Shown: in pieces, positions 1 to 8,785 of the stretch | Layout: each line of letters begins with the position of its first letter | Position numbering within the stretch: position 1 is the stretch's first letter | Assembly (NCBI RefSeq): GCF_015207735.1 | Contig: NZ_JADEWG010000122.1 | Coordinates: 1-19,218, forward strand | DNA: 19,218 bases | Source of the DNA: [Phormidium] sp. LEGE 05292 | GTDB lineage: Bacteria > Cyanobacteriota > Cyanobacteriia > Cyanobacteriales > Aerosakkonemataceae | Direction: 5' to 3' | Program-made: the position numbers and the translations under genes | The notes under the pieces: generated by a model | Told to the model about the DNA's origin: nothing | Databases searched by the model: none | What the model saw: the letters and a program-made list of their open reading frames with translations, nothing else

Positions 1-121
1 TGTGCCGTTTTATGATTCTAGCTACTTTGTAATGGCTTTCTTATTGGAACGAAGGAATTACTATCCTCGGCTTCTTGAGTGCCATTTTATCCTTCTAGGC
101 TAGTGCCATTTTTTCTTTCAA

Positions 122-697
122 GTGGCAAATCGTGCCATTGATGTTAAAGTTTATCCGGGACGGGCGAGTGTCATTGACTTTAGCCAAACCGATGAGGTGA
201 TTGGCTATGTGTTGATTGCTGACCCCTCTCATCTGGTGTTCGGTACAGATACAGAATTATCAGGCGGTCGTGCTAAAACTATATTCTTGCGCTCGATTCT
301 ACCATTGCGCTTTCCTGGTGCTACTACCGCTAACATCACCAGCCTTTCTATCAAAACAATGGATTCCCAACACAGACAACGACTTTATACTTTTAACGTA
401 ACACTCGCTAATAATCGACCAGAGCAATTAGGAATTCAGATTGCTACAGTTCCATCTGCAAATAGGCAAACTTTGGATATTAGTGCTGGTCAAACTATTA
501 CAGCATCAGATGTAGAAAGAGGCTTGAAAATTGCTATCCAAAGAAGGTACACCACAGCTAACGACCCAGTTGTTTATCAGGTGCAACGGTTTTTAGACAA
601 ATTGAAAAATCACAATCTATCACCAACCGATGCTGCAATGGAGGTAGGAATAGATTTTTCAGTGCTTATTGAACTTGTCAAGATTGCTCGAGAGTAA
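122..697 (+). CDS. Hypothetical protein (191 aa). Probable GTG start, with a stop 21 nt upstream in frame. Its stop lies 9 nt before the histidine kinase start, so the two are likely co-transcribed.
   Basis: Long ORF in the same orientation as the downstream kinase and tightly coupled to it. No motif I recognise, and no N-terminal signal peptide or TM segment. Confidence 0.5.
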   Translation: MANRAIDVKVYPGRASVIDFSQTDEVIGYVLIADPSHLVFGTDTELSGGRAKTIFLRSILPLRFPGATTANITSLSIKTMDSQHRQRLYTFNVTLANNRPEQLGIQIATVPSANRQTLDISAGQTITASDVERGLKIAIQRRYTTANDPVVYQVQRFLDKLKNHNLSPTDAAMEVGIDFSVLIELVKIARE

Positions 698-706
698 GGG
701 TTTTTC

Positions 707-3082
707 ATGTTCAAAAAGAATTCACAGCCTGTATCGCTGCGTTTACTCTTAACAATTCCCTTGGCTCTTGTAATTACCCTATCCGTTGGATTAACTGGTT
801 GGATATCTTTAATTGTCAGCAAGCAGACAATGAACGATTTAGTAACACAGTTACTTCAACAAGCAACTCAACGTATCTGCGAACCCTTAGAGTACTTCGA
901 TACTTTCCCAATTGCCGACCTGATAGCTCAAGAAAGCGGACAGTCAATTTTGAATAATTTACAAATCAGTCCTCACAGTCAAACTTTTATCCTCACTCGT
1001 TCTGGAAACATCATTGCCTACTCTACTTCTGCTACAACATATCTTCCCGATTATCTAGCAACTGAACAATCAATTCATCAGCAAAATCTCATTAACTATT
1101 CAGTTCAATTTTTACTCAAACATTTCCTTAATCTAGCTGCTATTACCAAAAGCGAGACGCTGACTTTTACTGCTAATGGCGATAAGTATTTACTTCAAGT
1201 CGAACCTCTTTTTGAGTCCGATGTTGGTAATGAATACAATATAGATTGGTTAATTGTTGCTGTCGTCCCGGAAACTGATTTTATCAACCAGGGGAACGCC
1301 AACACTCGCATCATGTTGGGACTTTGTTTTCTGGCATTGATTCTCTCTATTTCACTCCTTTTATTGATTTCTTGGCGAATTGAACTCAAACTACAGCGAT
1401 TAATTGCCGCTACCCAAGCAATTGCTGCCGGAAACCTCAACCAACAGGTACTCGGAAGTAATGTAGTCGAACTCGAATACTTGGCTCGTGCTTTCAATCA
1501 AATGAGCCAACAATTACAAAAGTATCGTTCTCAATCCGAACACTACTCTCGGATTTTGGAACTGAGGGTCGAATCTAAAACTCGCCAACTCAAACTGAAA
1601 AACCGGGAACTCAAAAAAGCAAAAAAGGCAGCTGAAGCCGCTAATCATGCTAAAAGTTCTTTTCTGGCTAATATGAGTCACGAATTGCGAACGCCGCTCA
1701 ATGCAATTCTTGGCTTTAGTCAACAGATGGCTCGTCACCAACAAACGACTCCCGCTCAACAATTGAGTCTAAATATTATTAATCGCAATGGCTCTCATTT
1801 ATTGAAACTGATTAATAATATTTTGTCTCTTTCTAAAATTGAAGCGGGTGAAATGAAGTTGGATGAAACTGCCTTTGACTTCTATGCTTTACTCGATGAT
1901 ATTGAGCAGATGTTGTTGCTCAAAGCTAAGGCTAAAGGTTTGCAATTAATTTTTGACCGTTCGGAAAAAGTCCCACAATATATCCGCACTGACGAAAGTA
2001 AATTGCGTCAGATTTTAATTAATCTTTTAGAGAATGCGATTAAGTTTACTTCTTCCGGTAGCGTCACGCTTCAAGTTAAAGTGACTGACCGTTTATCTCC
2101 TTCTTCCCACCAGCATTCATTAACAGCTAAAGCTTTACTTTTTTGGATTAGCGATACAGGTTTCGGTATTGCTCCCGAAGAATTGGGGTCTTTATTTAAA
2201 CCTTTTGTCCAAACCCAAACGGGTAGGCGCTCTCAAACTGGAACTGGATTGGGATTGCCAATTAGTCGTCAATTTATTAAGTTGATGAGTGGCGATATTC
2301 GAGTGAAAAGCAAATTAGGAACAGGAACCACTTTTCGGTTTTATATTCGAGTTGGTTTGGCTGATGCTTGGGAAGTGGACAATCACTTCTCATCTCCTAG
2401 AGTTATTGGTTTAGCTCCCAATCAACAAAAGTACCGCATCTTGGTTGTTGACGACCAATGGGAAAATCGGTTGCTTTTAAGTGAGTGTTGTCAGGAAGTA
2501 GGTTTTCAAGTTTGGCAAGCATCTAACGGTAGGGAGGCGATTCAGTTGTGGCAGCAACATAAACCGCACTTGATTTGGATGGATATTCGGATGCCAATAA
2601 TGGATGGCTATCAAGCAACTCAATTCATTAGAAAACAGCCAAATGGTGAACAGACAGTGATTATTGCTTTAACAGCTAGCGTTTTTGATGTGAAGCGGGA
2701 ACAAGCTTTTGATGTCGGTTGCAATGACTTTGTGGCTAAACCTTGTCCAGAGGCGGTGATTTTTGAGAAGATGGCACTTCACTTAGGTGTTCGCTACCTC
2801 TACGAAACTCAATCTTTCCTTCTCCAGCAGCATCAGTTAGTTCCACAACTGACTGCTGAATCGCTTTCTGTGTTGCCTCAAGGATTGCTCGTTCAACTTC
2901 ATCAAGCAGCGGAGCTTGGGGATGACCAAAAGGCTAAACAACTTATTGAGCAGATTCCAGAGTTTTACAATCCACTCAAGATTGCACTGGCTCAATTGGT
3001 GGAAGAATTGCGATTGGATACTATTAGCGACCTTACGAAATTTTCTGTTGGAAGCGAGGGATTGACTGACTCACCGGGTTAA
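707..3082 (+). CDS. Hybrid sensor histidine kinase / response regulator: two TM segments flanking a roughly 280-aa periplasmic sensor domain, then HAMP, coiled coil, HisKA, HATPase_c and a C-terminal REC domain.
   Basis: TM1 [25 protein letters not shown] and TM2 [23 protein letters not shown]-box [15 protein letters not shown]-box [13 protein letters not shown]-boxes ISDTGFGI and [11 protein letters not shown]. Receiver [14 protein letters not shown] ... [12 protein letters not shown] ... ALTASV. AAGGG ribosome-binding site before the ATG. Confidence 0.9.
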
Positions 3083-3100
3083 AAACAAAGTTACTCACAT

Positions 3101-3874
3101 TTAAGCATCTGTTTTTTTTCTGGGATTGAGAACAGTATCGATCGCTTTATCAATTAATTCAATCGATTCCTCACCTGGATAACTAGATACAGGGGTTTTT
3201 CTGTTGGTTAATTTTGGTGGTTTAGTGCCATGTTTTTCGGTGTAGTACTCATCAGCAAAACTTTGGATTAGCTGGATTTGGTCTGGGTTACTTTTAATGC
3301 CCTTTTCTTTTAATCTTTCTGCTACCGTCCAAGCTTTCTTTGTTTTAGTGTTAGTTTTATTGTTAGTTTGATTATTAGCTTCAGTTTCTGGTGATGAACC
3401 ATTACTCCCTTGGGCAACATCGGCTAAATTATCTGGTTGTCTAAAGTAGTCTTCTAAAATTGGAATAACCGAACGATACCACTTTAACTGTGGCCCCTGC
3501 CATTTGTTAGTTTTGGAAGTAGCGAGCAAACTGATACCGTGTTCAGAACCAGCTTCCGTGAGTATCCAGATTCGCTTTTCGTCGTTTTTTTCTTGGTATC
3601 CCAGCTTAACTAATGCCGTGTTTACTTGCTCCGGCTTAATTTTAACCGTTAAGTTTTCTGTTAATAGCGTTGCTAGTTCTGTGGCACTCATTCCTTCTTC
3701 TGGTAGTGAGTGAGTTGCACCAATCAAAGATTTAGCTAATTCTGCTATTTCTTTGAGTTCTGGGTACATGGTGGCTAAAGCATTGAATTTGAATTGAGCA
3801 ATTGCGGCATTACTCAGTCTGGTATTTAAGAGCCAGTTAGATAGTTGGTCGATGGTTTGGATGGCTGTTGCCAC
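3101..3874 (-). CDS. Hypothetical protein (257 aa) with a central low-complexity N/T/K-rich linker (NNQTNNKTNTKTKK). Function unknown.
   Basis: Clean long ORF on the minus strand. The N-terminal roughly 150 aa and the C-terminal roughly 70 aa look globular and are separated by a polar repeat linker. No catalytic motif recognised. Confidence 0.5.
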   Translation of the reverse strand: MATAIQTIDQLSNWLLNTRLSNAAIAQFKFNALATMYPELKEIAELAKSLIGATHSLPEEGMSATELATLLTENLTVKIKPEQVNTALVKLGYQEKNDEKRIWILTEAGSEHGISLLATSKTNKWQGPQLKWYRSVIPILEDYFRQPDNLADVAQGSNGSSPETEANNQTNNKTNTKTKKAWTVAERLKEKGIKSNPDQIQLIQSFADEYYTEKHGTKPPKLTNRKTPVSSYPGEESIELIDKAIDTVLNPRKKTDA

Positions 3875-3990
3875 CTGTTCGGGAGAAGGGATGAGGCAAT
3901 AAAAAGCTTTTCCTCAGATTAAGCTCTTAGTGTGATTATAGTCCAGCCTGCAAATAAAAAATTTATTTTCTCGTTTTATTTCTTCTAGAT

Positions 3991-4761
3991 TCAAAAATTC
4001 CCTAGTTCATGAAATTGAATTGAAGCCCAATAAGCATCTATGTCTGCAATTTTACATTGCTCAATTTTAACTCCTTCTGCTAATAGCGCTCGCTCTTGCT
4101 CTATTACATATTCAAATAACAAACGACCATCTGCTCTCACAATCCGATGGATTGGTAACTCAGAATTAGCTTTTTTGAGGAAGGTTGGAATAGCACGAGC
4201 ATAAGCTTTAGACACTCCCATCGCCATCAATAAGTCAGTAGTTTTTACAACTTTTCCAGATGGAATTCGTTGTACGAACTCAGCAAATCGCCCTTTGGCT
4301 TCATCAGGAAGAGGTTTGAATTGATAAGGTGCTAATGTTATTTCATCCCCCGCTAAAACTTGTCCATCTCTAACAATCATTCCCAGAAAACCTCGCTTTC
4401 CCTTAATTCTTTTGGCTAACCCAGGCTGAAGTTCATTTAAATAACTACAAGGTTCGCAAGGCAAAGTTAATCGAATCAAGGCTGATGAGCCTACTTGTAA
4501 AACTGTTCCTGATGAGAATTGTTCTATAAGAGTATCAACTAACAAATTTTCTTTTAACTCACCTGGCTTTAAACCAAATTCAGTTAGAGTTGAGGTACTC
4601 GCAATTAACACTTGACGCGGGTTTCCAGGTAACGCATTCACATCACCTAAAATTCCATATCCTCTTTGTAGGTTTAGTGTTTGAATCTCTTGCACTCTGG
4701 CACCAGGCTTATCTTTGATAAAGAGTTTCACTACTCTTATAGAGCAATTGTTATGGCTCAT
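3991..4761 (-). CDS. MOSC-domain protein (YiiM-like) fused to a C-terminal MGMT-family DNA-binding domain that lacks the acceptor cysteine (alkyltransferase-like, ATL-type).
   Basis: MOSC hallmark LTLPCEPCSYL with the conserved Cys in a beta-barrel-like N-terminal half. The C-terminal IPSGKVVKTTDLLMAMGVSKAYARAIPTFLKKANSELPIHRIVRADG matches the MGMT helix-turn-helix/wing region, with IHR in place of the PCHR active site. The start overlaps the rarA stop by 4 nt. Confidence 0.75.
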   Translation of the reverse strand: MSHNNCSIRVVKLFIKDKPGARVQEIQTLNLQRGYGILGDVNALPGNPRQVLIASTSTLTEFGLKPGELKENLLVDTLIEQFSSGTVLQVGSSALIRLTLPCEPCSYLNELQPGLAKRIKGKRGFLGMIVRDGQVLAGDEITLAPYQFKPLPDEAKGRFAEFVQRIPSGKVVKTTDLLMAMGVSKAYARAIPTFLKKANSELPIHRIVRADGRLLFEYVIEQERALLAEGVKIEQCKIADIDAYWASIQFHELGNF

Positions 4762-6977
4762 AGGCTAGCTTTAACAAAAACAACAGTTGTTGACCAAGGT
4801 AATGTTTGGTGGAGTAAGTAGCGGGTGAATAACTCTTGTATTTTCCCAACTTCCTTTTGAGATAAAATTTGAGCTAAACGTTCTGCTAATGTAGGGCGAG
4901 AGGAATTAGAGTTAATAAACCAGCGTTCTAATAAGCTCGGTGTAATATGCAAATTCGTTTGTAAATGTTCGGGAAAAATTTCTACCGTTAAACCAACAGA
5001 CAAAAAAGCTTTCTGCAAATCTTCCACATCCCAGTTAACCATTGAATCTGATGGGTCTGCATAAATGCTTTCTTCCGCCATTACCAACCGTTCATACAAA
5101 GAAGGCTCAAACTGTTTCGGGTCTAGCCAACGGTAAAGACGTTGCGTATGACGCGGTACGCTTTCTGCTAACACTAAAACACCTGATTTAGGTAGTAATT
5201 CAGCTAATTTCTGTACGGCAATATTTTTATCTGGTTCTTGTGTTAGTACGTTACGTCCGATGATGTAGTTAAACTCTACATTGGCAGCTTCGACTGTTAG
5301 GACATTTGGTAATTCTGCTAAAGTCGATGTCAGCACAAATGGACGGATTAATTCTGGTAATGCAACTGCAAGTTCTTCTAATGCTGAGGCTTCTTGTGGA
5401 GTGCGAACGCAAGCATAAACACCACCTTCTGGTACTTGGCGAACGGCTTCCCAGGTAAGTAATCCACTACCTGCATTGAGGTCAAGTATTACATGATGTC
5501 GCTGGAGTTGAACTAAACTAAAAATGCGCTCGCGTACCTTCGCCAATTGTTCTCCAACTTGAGATAAAGTACGCTGCAACCAGCGTTCGGTTGCCTTGTC
5601 AGTTGTCCCATAAGTCAGTACTTCTGCTGGTGCTATTCCCATACCTTCTAAGGAAGCAGCTAGTTGTGCTTCTCGACGACGTGCAACAGTCGAAGCGATT
5701 CCTGCTTCAAATCCTTGAAGTGAAGGTTGATAAAATACTTGTCCTTGCAAGCTGGTGGGTAAGTATTGTTGAGCTACCCAATGGTCGCGGTAAGCGTGAG
5801 GATATAAATAACCTGCACCATGTCCAAATCCTTTTTTATCTCGATTAGCATCTTTTAAATGATTAGGTACTTCTGCTTCTTTTTCCTTTTCCACTACAGA
5901 TAAAGCATCGAAAAATCCCATCACGCTATTTGATTTGGCTGTATTTGCTAAATACAAAGTGGCTTGTGCTAAATGGTAGCGTCCTTCTGGCATTCCTACT
6001 CGGTCAAACGCTTCGGCACAAGCATTCACTACTACTACCGCATTGGGGTCAGCAAGTCCTACATCTTCGCTGGCTAATATCAACATTCGCCGAAAGATAA
6101 AACGGGGGTCTTCTCCGGCATAAACCATTTTGGCTAACCAATACAATGCGGCATCTGAGTCAGAACCGCGTAAGCTTTTAATAAATGCACTGATGGTGTC
6201 AAAATGTGCGTCTCCTTCTTTATCGTAGAGAACTGCTCTTTGCTGGATTGATTCTTCTGCTACTGAATCGGTAATGTGAATGATTCCTACTTTATCTGCT
6301 GGTGTAGTTTCTACTGCTAGTTCTAAAGCGTTGAGTAAAGAACGAGCATCGCCATTGGCAACATTTACTAAATGTTCTACAGCATCGGATTCTAACTTAA
6401 TTTTAAGTTTGCCATAGCCGCGTTCAGAATCATTGAGAGTTTGCTCGATAATCCGGTGTAAATCTTCATTGTCGAGCAGTTTGAGTTGAAAAATTCGCGA
6501 ACGGCTAACGAGTGCTTTGTTGACTTCAAAGTAAGGATTTTCGGTGGTAGCGCCAATCAGGATAACTGTACCGTTTTCTACCCAGGGCAATAATGCGTCT
6601 TGTTGGGATTTATTGAAACGGTGTACTTCATCGACAAACAGAATAGTGCCTTGGGAGTACTTTTTTTGTGTTTCTTGGGCTGTGGAAATGGCATCTCTAA
6701 TTTCTTTGACTCCTGAAAGTACGGCGTTGATGGCAATAAAGTGAGCTTTGGTGGTGTTGGCGATGATGCGTGCTAAGGTGGTTTTGCCCGTACCCGGTGG
6801 GCCTGAGAAAATTATTGATGATAGTTGGTCGGCAAGAATGGCACGACGCAATAAGCGTCCTGGGCCAATGATATGTTCTTGACCGATAAATTCTCCCAGG
6901 GTGCGCGGTCGCATTCTGGCTGCTAGGGGTGCTTCGGTTAAAGCAAACTGTGGTTGATTTTGAGCGAATAAATCCAT
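4758..6977 (-). CDS. rarA: Replication-associated recombination protein A (RarA/MgsA AAA+ ATPase) with a roughly 300-aa C-terminal extension carrying a SAM-dependent methyltransferase-like motif I.
   Basis: Walker A FSGPPGTGKTTLARI. Walker B ILFVDEVHRFNKSQQDALL. MgsA C-terminal motif GYLYPHAYRDHWVAQQYLP. The extension contains VILDLNAGSGLLTWEA (a D-x-G-x-G Rossmann MTase motif I). Confidence 0.85.
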   Translation of the reverse strand: MDLFAQNQPQFALTEAPLAARMRPRTLGEFIGQEHIIGPGRLLRRAILADQLSSIIFSGPPGTGKTTLARIIANTTKAHFIAINAVLSGVKEIRDAISTAQETQKKYSQGTILFVDEVHRFNKSQQDALLPWVENGTVILIGATTENPYFEVNKALVSRSRIFQLKLLDNEDLHRIIEQTLNDSERGYGKLKIKLESDAVEHLVNVANGDARSLLNALELAVETTPADKVGIIHITDSVAEESIQQRAVLYDKEGDAHFDTISAFIKSLRGSDSDAALYWLAKMVYAGEDPRFIFRRMLILASEDVGLADPNAVVVVNACAEAFDRVGMPEGRYHLAQATLYLANTAKSNSVMGFFDALSVVEKEKEAEVPNHLKDANRDKKGFGHGAGYLYPHAYRDHWVAQQYLPTSLQGQVFYQPSLQGFEAGIASTVARRREAQLAASLEGMGIAPAEVLTYGTTDKATERWLQRTLSQVGEQLAKVRERIFSLVQLQRHHVILDLNAGSGLLTWEAVRQVPEGGVYACVRTPQEASALEELAVALPELIRPFVLTSTLAELPNVLTVEAANVEFNYIIGRNVLTQEPDKNIAVQKLAELLPKSGVLVLAESVPRHTQRLYRWLDPKQFEPSLYERLVMAEESIYADPSDSMVNWDVEDLQKAFLSVGLTVEIFPEHLQTNLHITPSLLERWFINSNSSRPTLAERLAQILSQKEVGKIQELFTRYLLHQTLPWSTTVVFVKASL

Positions 6978-7028
6978 AGCCTAATCCTAGCCATTTTCTC
7001 GTTATGTTCGCTCATATCAAACAGTAAT

Positions 7029-8156
7029 TTATTGTGGTGACAACATGGATTCTATTTCATGTAACTTGGAAGCAAGAGCAACTTTTAGTGCTTCCAATTC
7101 TTGTTGTTCCATATTATCGATCGCTATTTCTTGTACTTGCCGAATCATACTTGTGGCACGAGATGGCGTTGACCCTTTTGCTTGTTCTTTTTGATAACTG
7201 CTAATCTCTGATGAAACTAATGCCCTAGTTTTAGCCACAGATAATTTTTCTTGCAAAATTCGCTTAACTAACTTGGCTCTAACTTTTTTAGCCTCTGCTT
7301 CCTTGATTCCCAACGCTTTGGCATTACAACGCTGCACGGCAATTGCCTGTATTCCTCCCAGTCCTTGAGTACGCATAGCTTGTTTTAAATCTGCTGCTAA
7401 TCCCAGCATGGGAAAAATATTGGTATTTATGGAAGCTGGGTTTAATTGTAAAGATAGTAATACGCTAAGTACGCTCTTTTCTGATGAGTTGAGTTCTAAT
7501 TCGGCTAAAACTTCTTGTTGTGACTCTGGGCTAACTACTACTATTTCACTAATTTGATTCGTTTTTCCTTGTCTTTCTAGTCGTCGGACTGCGGTTCTTA
7601 AGATGCGAGGAATATCTTGCTCGTTTAAATTACTTGTCTGAGCTATTTCTTTGATTAACGCTTCTGCCATATCTAGCGGATTTAAGTTTTCCCGATGCAA
7701 GTTGGCAAGGAGAACGCGACGGTGCAACGCTTCGGGACAAGGGATAATTACTGCTTTTATCGTACCCCACTGCAATTGCAAAGCCGCACGCCAACGTCGT
7801 TCTCCATCAAATAGTAGATACCGTCCATCTGGTTGTTCTATGAGGATAATTGGTTCCTGCTGTCCGTCGCTAGCCAGGGAAACCATCATCCCGTTAATAC
7901 TTTCCGGTGAAAATGTCTGTCTCGGTTGGTCTGGGTTAGGATCTATCTGCTCCACTGATATGTCTATTACACCCCCTGATGTGAGAGTTGAACGCAATTC
8001 TTGGACTTTGGTTTCAACTTGTTGAGAGCCAACGGAACGCAATTGCTCTATTTCGGCTTGCAGTTCGGTTATCTTAGTTTCTAAGGCGTGGACTTCTTGG
8101 GAATATTCCGCACCAGAAAACAGATTGGATAGGTCTATTTGTGGTTTTTTACTCAT
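7029..8156 (-). CDS. ParB-like protein with a ParB/Srx N-terminal domain that has an arginine-patch (CTP-binding type), preceded by a roughly 60-aa coiled-coil N-terminus.
   Basis: PIILIEQPDGRYLLFDGERRWRAA matches the ParB GxRRxRAA box. The following ENLNPLDMAEALIKEI resembles the ParB ENLxxxExAxAY region. N-terminal heptad-like segment ALETKITELQAEIEQLRS. Confidence 0.7.
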   Translation of the reverse strand: MSKKPQIDLSNLFSGAEYSQEVHALETKITELQAEIEQLRSVGSQQVETKVQELRSTLTSGGVIDISVEQIDPNPDQPRQTFSPESINGMMVSLASDGQQEPIILIEQPDGRYLLFDGERRWRAALQLQWGTIKAVIIPCPEALHRRVLLANLHRENLNPLDMAEALIKEIAQTSNLNEQDIPRILRTAVRRLERQGKTNQISEIVVVSPESQQEVLAELELNSSEKSVLSVLLSLQLNPASINTNIFPMLGLAADLKQAMRTQGLGGIQAIAVQRCNAKALGIKEAEAKKVRAKLVKRILQEKLSVAKTRALVSSEISSYQKEQAKGSTPSRATSMIRQVQEIAIDNMEQQELEALKVALASKLHEIESMLSPQ

Positions 8157-8215
8157 GTTTAGTCGTGTTATCAGATAGCGGAAAAATAGAGTGGTTCGGA
8201 GTAAAAGGTAGTTTT

Positions 8216-8578
8216 TCAGAATCCATGTTTTTGAGCCAGAAAATCACGGATATCTTGATTTCCTTTGGCTTGGTTGCAGGGATGACAGGCTAACGTTAGG
8301 TTAGAAACTCGGTCAGAGCCACCTTGTTTAAGTTCCATGCGGAACACAATACTTTCTCCGCACTGGATGGCAAAACCTGTCCACTCGGAACCTGGGTCGA
8401 TTTTGAGGGTGTATTGCTTGGGTTTAGGATTTTCAACCTGACTTTGCAGGATTAGGACGTAAGGGTATTGACGAATTGGTTTAGCTTTTCCTTTAGACTG
8501 CAATTCCCTTGCTCTGGCAGGATGTACCTGGTCTAATGGCACTCTATCAGCATTCAAAACAAACACATAATTTTGCAT
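8216..8578 (-). pseudogene. IscB (OMEGA RNA-guided nuclease, IS200/IS605 family) remnant. It keeps the PLMP/RRXRR-family N-terminal domain and the RuvC-I motif, joined in frame to the C-terminal tail of the HNH domain. The bridge helix, RuvC-II/III and the HNH catalytic core are deleted. The ORF is intact, 120 aa, with a strong SD.
   Basis: YVFVLNADRVPLDQVHPARARELQSKGKAKPIRQYPYVLIL matches the IscB PLMP N-domain. YTLKIDPGSEWTGFAIQ matches RuvC-I (catalytic Asp). GGSDRVSNLTLACHPCNQAKGNQ matches the distal half of an HNH ββα-Me domain, without the upstream D-H catalytic pair or the first CxxC. AAGGAG sits 7 nt upstream of the ATG. Confidence 0.55.
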
Positions 8579-8785
8579 TTCTGCGCTCCTTAAGGGTTAA
8601 GTTTGCATCGACATTGCTTGCAGGCTTGTCATGGGTTACGGTGTTGCATCATCACGACCTTGATCATGTTCCTTCCCCGACGCTTAGGACTTGCCCGATC
8701 CTATTAAGTCATCACCTACAAGCATTCATCTAGCGTAGCTGGGTACTCTGAATTCCTGCATTTCCCTCCGAATTACTCCGGTTCG
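8579..8785 (-). ncRNA. Candidate degenerate omega-RNA-like structured leader upstream of the IscB remnant, or alternatively just the 5' UTR of that ORF.
   Basis: A 207-nt non-coding interval lying exactly where IscB elements encode their omega-RNA, immediately 5' of the nuclease ORF. The minus-strand transcript has several local hairpins: CCGGA-GUAA-UUCGG (GNRA loop), CAUGACA...UGUCgAUG, and CUUAA-ccc-UUAAG overlapping the SD. Confidence 0.2.

Follow-up and report, generated by a model that had tools for sequence, protein, structure and literature searches.

ISC transposons are abundant in cyanobacteria, and their boundaries have been verified by means of empty orthologous sites (Kapitonov et al. 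2016, PMC4810608), an approach that we also follow here. The guide RNA of the IscB nuclease (omega RNA) takes its scaffold from the transposon right end (RE) and its guide from the DNA just outside that end, and its transcription needs a co-oriented upstream gene (Meers et al. 2023, bioRxiv 10.1101/2023.03.14.532601). Homing-endonuclease genes run through a cycle of invasion, fixation, degeneration and loss (Goddard and Burt 1999, reviewed for OMEGA systems in PMC13565253). For IscB, experiments have demonstrated only "restorative" homing to sister chromosomes, and lateral homing has been documented for TnpB on plasmids (PMC13565253). We analyzed a complete 19,218-bp contig of Phormidium sp. 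LEGE 05292 (hereafter the window), in which a short open reading frame (ORF) related to IscB lies between a parA-like and a parB-like gene. The 631 nt at 8165..8795 on the minus strand are very probably an internally deleted relic of an IscB-only transposon of about 1.55 kb (ISC group, IS200/IS605), which has kept its omega scaffold and its ends and which seems to have arrived at this site recently and laterally.

The ORF (8216..8578, minus strand) encodes 120 amino acids (MQNYV...AQKHGF, followed by the stop codon), and a protein 100% identical to it (P0001) bears the NCBI name "RRXRR domain-containing protein." A previous sequence-only reading of this DNA had called it an IscB remnant that keeps a PLMP-type domain, the RuvC-I motif and an HNH tail, and had proposed profile searches as a check. 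Both Pfam profiles matched: RRXRR (PF14239) over ORF residues 5-88 (profile positions 1-84 of 174, E = 4e-18) and HNH (PF01844) over residues 82-108 (profile positions 21-47 of 47, E = 7.6e-6). The NCBIfam model guided_IscB (NF040563, RNA-guided endonuclease IscB) aligned in two stretches (E = 2.9e-30), with a score of 105.5 bits that is below its curated equivalog cutoff of 175 bits. When solved structures were searched by sequence, ORF residues 5-73 and 84-109 matched two segments of TbaIscB about 190 residues apart, the first of them aligning to TbaIscB 498-566. The match of the ORF to IscB is real and far beyond chance. Judged from its sequence, what the ORF encodes is a piece of an IscB family member and not itself a functional one, and what NCBI annotates as a normal coding sequence at 8216..8578 is effectively a pseudogene.

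Full-length parents of 426 amino acids, with 87-92% amino acid identity to the remnant, are present in related cyanobacteria. A scan of species-representative genomes identified such an IscB in a metagenome-assembled genome of Phormidium (L003, ORF 3359..4639) and in Floridaenema flaviceps BLCC-F50 (L004), in both cases in a context unrelated to the window. Further full-length copies were found in L050/L051 and L052, and a relative at 75% identity in L046-L049. A metagenome scan with the parent IscB as query returned one close relative, L052; the remaining matches were at most 54% identical and of no help to the omega alignment. The element in L003 spans 3142..4690, and its ends are collinear with those of the window relic. 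Block boundaries were taken from a blastn comparison of the window with L003, and protein losses from a protein alignment (A4); an alignment of fragmentary first-round protein matches (A1) was too gappy and was discarded.

Relative to these parents, 306 of 426 codons are lost (426 - 120 = 306), through two in-frame deletions of 130 and 176 codons. The sequence-only reading had described a single in-frame jump; the frame is indeed kept, and the alignment to L003 corrects the count to two. The N-terminal part aligns to the L003 IscB by tblastn over 87 residues at 86% identity, and the RuvC-I motif K59-I60-D61-P62-G63 is invariant with respect to full-length IscBs (alignment A4). The first deletion took away parent residues from about 85 to 215, comprising the Arg-rich bridge helix, RuvC-II, the first CxxC and the HNH catalytic His; the bridge helix (RRxRR), GFRRHRRSQLRYR in the parent, is absent from the remnant in alignment A4. 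The retained HNH tail differs from L003 at 12 of 96 nt and is incomplete, with CAYCG...EIEHIHP deleted and CHPC alone kept (profile positions 21-47 of 47). The second deletion took away parent residues from about 249 to 424, that is, RuvC-III (HSIDAACV) and the C-terminal region that interacts with the target-adjacent motif (TAM). All that remains of the C-terminal domain is GF, its final two residues, together with the stop codon, and these are the original IscB C-terminus; in the terminal HGF, the His is the new junction codon. The alignment to the 426-aa parents thus bears out the parts that had been reported as kept, and equally those reported as missing (bridge helix, RuvC-II/III and the catalytic half of HNH). 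No long direct repeats were found at the deletion breakpoints, where microhomology amounts to about 3 nt at most.

The intact frame and the strong AAGGAG Shine-Dalgarno sequence that had also been pointed out are read directly from the DNA, the latter at 8586..8591 (minus strand), 7 nt upstream of the ATG of the ORF. Its context, TAAGGAGCGCAGAAATG, does not vary among the full-length copies L003, L004 and L050, so this signal is inherited from the parent element. The 120-aa ORF would be a translatable by-product, which would neither cut nor bind guide and target as IscB does.

Comparison of the parA-parB interval in relatives, another check that had been proposed, found seven alleles empty at the site: L044, L081, L082 (BLCC-F50), L042, L043, L080 and L045. 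Reads for L044 are in SRR27453492 and those for L081 in SRR33230362. These alleles join window position 8796 directly to 8164, so that AAATCAAA is followed by GACTAAACATG (also written as ...CTCAAGAAATCAAA followed by GACTAAACATG). The occupied site reads AAATCAAA, then the element from GAGTAGCTAACG to CTGATAACAC, then GACTAAACATG. Setting the empty AAATCAAA/GACTAAAC against the occupied arrangement, in which GAGTAGC...AACAC stands between AAATCAAA and GACTAAAC, reveals no target duplication. The boundary of the relic is ambiguous by 2-3 nt because GA(G/C) is present at both junctions. The flanks of six empty alleles (all but L045) were compared with those of the window and diverge from them by 3% to 14%. 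Five of the seven empty alleles are intact, with a ParA of 268 amino acids whose stop codon overlaps the parB ATG by 8 nt (ATGAGTAA). The window ParA has 266 amino acids and ends in KSKSS, versus KSKTKHE in the empty alleles, its last four residues having been replaced through the insertion. The parB ATG now lies 8 nt past the element and 59 nt past the stop of the remnant, and the native parA/parB overlap is broken. In a 90% ParA cluster of 19 members, 2 of the 15 members listed (the window and a second strain, L001) are of the 266-aa occupied type. Together, these comparisons show that the element inserted at the overlap of the parA stop and the parB ATG, without target duplication and co-oriented with parA. 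The placement between a parA-like and a parB-like gene had been recognized from sequence and is upheld by ParA-type ATPase and ParB_N profile matches; the second deletion, the omega scaffold, the rewritten parA end and the broken parA/parB overlap had gone unremarked.

The ends of the relic recur elsewhere. The GAGTAGC... start and the ...CTATCTGAT-N5 end are common to L003, L004 (distal end only), L050 and L052, all with unrelated flanks, and diverged versions of both ends occur in L046 and L002, again between unrelated flanks. Directly after the distal end, GAC is found in seven of seven independently located elements (window, L003, L004, L050, L052, L046 and L002), the other flank being unrelated among them. 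The same GAC stands in the empty sites of L044, L081, L082 and L043. Subterminally, the relic carries a 32-nt imperfect inverted repeat (8189-8220 versus 8747-8778, 72% complementary) that links the distal and the omega-proximal ends, and a small CCGGA/UUCGG hairpin, features that a Y1 transposase might recognize. Minus-strand nhmmer matches likewise reflect the repeat common to both ends. No tnpA was found in the 19-kb window. A promoter and terminator scan of 7900..9900 gave results at or below shuffle expectation, with no terminator inside the relic.

A second occupied allele allowed us to compare the age of the element with that of its surroundings. L001, a 2-kb Logan contig from SRR31200898, has the same parA-element-parB arrangement as the window, with identical junctions. 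Its element carries a single 248-codon deletion, with the C-terminus kept and the HNH tail gone (P0002, 178 aa). Neither deletion pattern can be derived from the other, and both relics must therefore descend from a fuller copy at the site. The two elements differ at 3 of 512 nt and their flanks at 60 of 1016 nt (about 6%; Fisher p = 3e-8). On the side of the flanks, we counted 47 differences over 801 nt of parA, with 35 synonymous codon changes, and 13 over 215 nt at the start of parB. Within the element there are 2 over the 447 nt of the omega region and ORF N-terminus (0/231 in the ORF) and 1 over the 65 nt of the distal end. Moving outward from the junctions, the first flank differences are met after 34 nt and 28 nt. 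A tree of the flanks places the window with the empty alleles L081 (3.0%), L044 (3.5%) and BLCC-F50 (4.1%), the occupied L001 being 5.9% away. Logan contigs are built at k=31. On the parB side of L001 the first variant lies 28 nt from the junction and a single 31-mer spans both, so that linkage is secure at k=31. A homing-type signature is thus present, with element divergence far below flank divergence and occupied alleles, two in number, that are not monophyletic. This suggests that the element reached the same site laterally and not long ago, in a homing-like manner, and then decayed fast and independently in the two lineages. The sequence-only proposal of a recently decayed IS200/IS605-family OMEGA element is supported by the retained ends and omega scaffold, the seven empty alleles and the differing deletion of the sister allele.

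A third internally deleted IscB of the same omega subfamily was observed in L002 (7483..8299), where residues 144-391 are lost and the frame is broken, with the omega region and the distal end with its GAC retained. Since L002 adds a third case, internal deletion with retention of the ends is recurrent. All three deletions at the parA-parB locus (two in the window, one in L001) are in frame (p = 0.037, one of them being ascertainment-biased). Adding the out-of-frame L002 leaves three of four in frame, which is not significant (p about 0.11), and we rejected the in-frame deletions as evidence of selection on that count.

A full element, consisting of omega scaffold, 426-aa IscB and short distal end, thus inserted in AAATCAAA/GACTAAAC. 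The most likely route of its arrival would be homing-type copying, in which an omega-guided cut of the empty site is repaired by recombination from an occupied allele. Two in-frame deletions then stripped the C-terminal domain as well as the bridge helix, RuvC-II/III and the HNH catalytic half, and the nuclease gene would have decayed separately in each lineage, as in the classic homing-endonuclease cycle. With scaffold and ends intact, the relic may for that reason be a passenger, at most a non-autonomous one, that would need a full-length IscB and a Y1 transposase in trans.

The 217 nt directly upstream of the ORF are collinear without indels among the window, L001, L003, L050 and L052, and this region differs from L003 at 15 of 217 nt versus 35 of 248 in the adjacent ORF, being thus about twice as conserved. 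The homologous region of the 75%-identical L046/L047 gives a sub-threshold match to the Rfam model HEARO (RF02033) over its full length (38 bits, E = 1e-4). A subfamily nhmmer profile gives weak, consistently placed matches at the HEARO 3' end in HEARO-positive loci. These comparisons indicate that the upstream 217 nt are an intact but divergent omega scaffold of the HEARO class, with a predicted structure. The putative guide-side flank recurs unchanged in the empty alleles L044 and L081, with GAC as the next bases. The gene in the required co-oriented upstream position is here parA, so that the orientation of the insertion fits the published requirement for IscB guide biogenesis. The coordinates of these features are collected in Table 1.

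In two elements of this subfamily we also observed matches to group II intron domain V/VI (RF00029), at L004 59..136 and L029 1266..1342, which abut the IscB elements. The L004 intron ends exactly where omega-scaffold homology resumes (model position 102), and the L029 intron is followed, at 1344, by IscB residues 203-426. Both are intron insertions, one within omega DNA and the other within iscB.

Table 1. Features of the relic and its surroundings in the 19,218-bp window, with their counterparts in the full-length element of L003
Feature	Window position	Strand	Counterpart or remark
Block 1: 217-nt upstream region and codons 1-83	8796..8331	-	L003 3141..3606
Block 2: HNH tail	8325..8227	-	L003 4001..4100
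Block 3: last codons, stop and distal end	8226..8162	-	L003 4629..4693; extends 3 nt into flanking GAC
Putative guide-encoding flank, last native parA bases, ...CTGCTCAAGAAATCAAA (guide CUGCUCAAGAAAUCAAA)	8796..8812	-	from published IscB architecture
Predicted omega-RNA scaffold region and ORF-proximal transposon end (RE sensu Meers et al.)	8579..8795	-	217 nt, starts GAGTAGCTAACGAACCGGAG
First 10 element bases, last parA codons and stop	8786..8795	-	..K SS and stop replaces ..KTKHE and stop
Codons 1-84: PLMP-type N-terminal domain and RuvC-I strand with IDPG aspartate	8327..8578	-	collinear with L003 residues 1-84
Deletion junction 1, 130 codons	8324..8331	-	blastn break L003 3606 / 4001
Codons 86-117: C-terminal half of HNH, GGSDRVSNLTLACHPCNQAKGNQDIRDFLAQK	8228..8323	-	collinear with L003 residues 216-248
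Deletion junction 2, 176 codons	8226..8227	-	blastn break L003 4100 / 4629
ORF-distal end, original last codons and stop, ...CCGCTATCTGATAACAC	8165..8226	-	collinear with L003 4629..4690
GAC, candidate target or TAM-type motif	8162..8164	-	directly outside the ORF-distal end
parA-like ATPase gene	8786..9586	-	upstream, co-oriented; 3' end rewritten by insertion
parB-like gene (ParB_N protein)	7029..8156	-	profile matches

Other histories of the locus have to be weighed against a recent lateral arrival followed by decay. Most closely related to it is the view that the element still works in non-autonomous form: read-through from parA would supply an omega RNA with the parA 3' end as its guide, a full-length IscB paralogue from another place in the genome would load this RNA and go on cutting empty alleles, and a Y1 TnpA would move the relic, the protein gene alone being dead. 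This overlaps with our explanation and differs from it solely in claiming present activity. It draws on an omega scaffold that is free of indels and better conserved than the ORF, on the retention of both ends and of the 32-nt imperfect inverted repeat, and on a guide-side flank and GAC that are intact in empty alleles; gene-less PATE derivatives of IS200/IS605 are, moreover, documented. Conservation over 0.6% divergence is, however, uninformative on constraint, the window holds no tnpA, and among the 120 best relatives of the parent, most of them nameless entries, there is no full-length IscB of LEGE 05292. Present activity is unlikely, in our judgment. It is hardly credible that the 120-aa protein should be a domesticated mini-IscB, for instance one that binds omega RNA or has a regulatory role, perhaps in connection with parAB expression. 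The sequence-only reading had offered a domesticated small protein as its second possibility, and the intact ORF with its strong Shine-Dalgarno sequence, its location inside an operon (so that it is probably transcribed) and the fact that all three deletions at the locus are multiples of three could be read in that way. The protein, however, forms a singleton cluster among 5.8 billion clustered proteins, the sister allele keeps the C-terminus in place of the HNH tail, at least seven related alleles lack the element, and the Shine-Dalgarno sequence is inherited. The protein has also lost the bridge helix, the TAM-interacting domain and, from the HNH zinc site, the first CxxC. With L002 included, the in-frame share of three deletions in four is not significant (p about 0.11), and the ORF part offers zero substitutions on which to measure selection.

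Two further explanations concern the way in which the same site came to be occupied twice. A single old insertion followed by losses predicts an element divergence of about 6%, and we rejected it unless gene conversion is invoked. In that extended form, an insertion before the split of window and L001 would have been followed by several precise losses, and the surviving copies would later have been homogenized through gene conversion, with newer copies of the IS family as donors. IS200/IS605 elements do excise precisely, and multi-copy insertion sequence families can undergo concerted evolution. Yet at least two precise losses would be needed (in the L044/L081 clade and in BLCC-F50), along with conversion tracts that end, in each of the two lineages, at either border of the element, and the ORF part lacks even synonymous differences (0/231), whereas 35 codons of parA have changed synonymously. 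We hold this history to be very improbable. Independent TnpA-mediated transpositions into the same site, by chance or because it is a hotspot and without an RNA-guided step, seem to us quite improbable. ISC elements have short specific target motifs, and the conserved GAC abuts the distal end in all seven elements; a motif of 3-4 nt, however, occurs thousands of times per genome, and an identical nucleotide position in two lineages together with near-identical elements is hard to expect without homology-directed copying.

Several results weigh against the interpretation of a recently and laterally acquired element with an intact omega scaffold. The case for lateral arrival is built on two occupied alleles, and the parA-side linkage of L001 could in principle be chimeric. 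Three of the four known deletions are in frame, so that some selection for translation may have acted. The absence of tnpA and of a full-length iscB applies to the 19-kb contig. HEARO (RF02033) has no match in the window at the gathering threshold, nor any at E<=10 over 7900..9900, and Rfam reports for the window chance snoRNA and lncRNA matches alone. HEARO is likewise absent from the closest full-length copies such as L003; 12 other cyanobacterial IscB loci score 84-165 bits with it. RNAalifold yields a plausible multi-stem structure in which the 4-6 compensatory pairs come from few sequences, and single-sequence folding of 8560..8800 gives an unexceptional energy (z = -0.72). As the guide RNA of this subfamily escapes the Rfam HEARO model, surveys based on HEARO under-count such elements.

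In itself, the relic is an ordinary decayed copy of a well-known transposon family. Its value lies in the clean natural series formed by an empty site, a full-length parent elsewhere and two decay products, which shows IscB elements shrinking toward gene-less derivatives with guide scaffold and ends kept. Homing of OMEGA elements from strain to strain, for which field evidence is scarce, would be expected to leave in populations just such an age contrast between element and flanks. Tentatively, and with more doubt than confidence, we consider that the locus may record a complete homing-endonuclease-style life cycle of a natural chromosomal IscB element. This would comprise lateral copying into the same parA/parB junction between flanks 6% apart, collapse of the nuclease gene within about 0.6% divergence by different deletions, survival of the guide scaffold and ends, and possibly a guide-only passenger dependent on full-length paralogues. 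If true, this would be a case of "non-restorative homing," of which TnpB on plasmids is to date the only demonstrated example.

The sequence-only reading had also stated that HIP1 octamers stop at the ORF and had taken the stop as a possible scar of insertion. All 10 copies of HIP1 (GCGATCGC) lie at or above position 9245, against a shuffle expectation of 0.08, which is a strong overall enrichment, and their absence from 1..9244 has a P of about 1e-4 to 1e-3. The last copy, at 9245, is situated in parA, about 450 nt from the edge of the element, so that the coincidence is approximate only. The empty-site allele L044 is equally poor in HIP1: it shares the single copy, and the 2.9 kb that follow contain no other. 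Since the boundary falls in parA and L044 shows the same pattern, it is no scar of the insertion, and HIP1 poverty is a property of the gene block, not of the IscB relic.

We made some additional observations on the host genes and their surroundings. The empty-site allele L045 (JGI 3300075567) lacks 292 nt of parA and 419 nt of parB (window 9171..9462 and 7401..7819). Both deletions break the frame; in this one lineage parAB is itself in decay, and constraint on the host operon would therefore seem to be weak. In L042 and L043, with ParB proteins 88-91% identical to that of the window, synteny is lost beyond parA-parB; the L042 pair is flanked by a rubrerythrin and a CHAT/TPR gene, and the neighbors in L043 are different again. 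This loss of synteny places the parA-parB pair in a rearranging neighborhood. Comparison of window 9686..13698 with L044 570..754 and L001 1..122 shows that these two strains lack dhaL, dhaM and the 3' part of dhaK; between their truncated dhaK and the parA upstream region lie about 185 nt of unrelated DNA. BLCC-F50 (L082) keeps dhaM beside parA, like the window. Farther away, a 903-aa ORF at 14051..16762 (minus strand) carries, in this cyanobacterial contig, eukaryote-type Major Vault Protein repeats and a shoulder domain (Pfam Vault, E = 1.9e-68; MVP_shoulder, E = 7.9e-53; also Vault_2/3/4). At 4758..6977 (minus strand) lies an MgsA/RarA-type AAA+ ATPase of 739 amino acids, whose Pfam matches end near residue 433. 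Its C-terminal stretch of about 300 residues has no domain at E<=1e-5, and the same 739-aa architecture is present in L081 and L082.

Close to the locus among described systems are the ISC transposons (Kapitonov et al. 2016, PMC4810608), which likewise comprise elements of about 1.5 kb at full length with a lone iscB and no tnpA, insert beside a short specific motif without target-site duplication and have subterminal repeats. Unlike them, the window copy has lost 306 of 426 codons. The ISC motifs listed are GT/GG, GT/GA and N/ATGA (PMC4810608), whereas the window motif is GAC, with the insertion immediately upstream of it in the orientation of iscB. With the IscB-omega RNA system (HEARO, RF02033; bioRxiv 10.1101/2023.03.14.532601) the relic shares a conserved stretch of about 220 nt, here the predicted scaffold, that immediately precedes iscB and, as in the work of Meers et al., a transposon end that bounds the scaffold, a putative guide outside it and co-orientation with the upstream gene. 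It differs in that the scaffold of its subfamily is missed by Rfam HEARO and in that its nuclease partner is destroyed. The natural IscB- or TnpB-derived proteins IsrB and TldR have also lost nuclease parts, but they are conserved families with an RNA/DNA-binding core, whereas the 120-aa protein is found in a single strain, has neither bridge helix nor TAM-interacting domain and is without most of RuvC. The PATEs derived from IS200/IS605 have similarly kept their ends, lost their interior and are potentially mobilizable in trans. PATEs are devoid of an ORF; the relic, with its 120-aa ORF in frame and its omega scaffold complete, is on this account an intermediate stage. The parallel with the homing cycle extends to a young element that lies between old flanks and occupies one and the same site in lineages that are not sisters, the persistence of empty alleles and independent degeneration; the lateral homing of IscB is, at this locus, what these patterns suggest.

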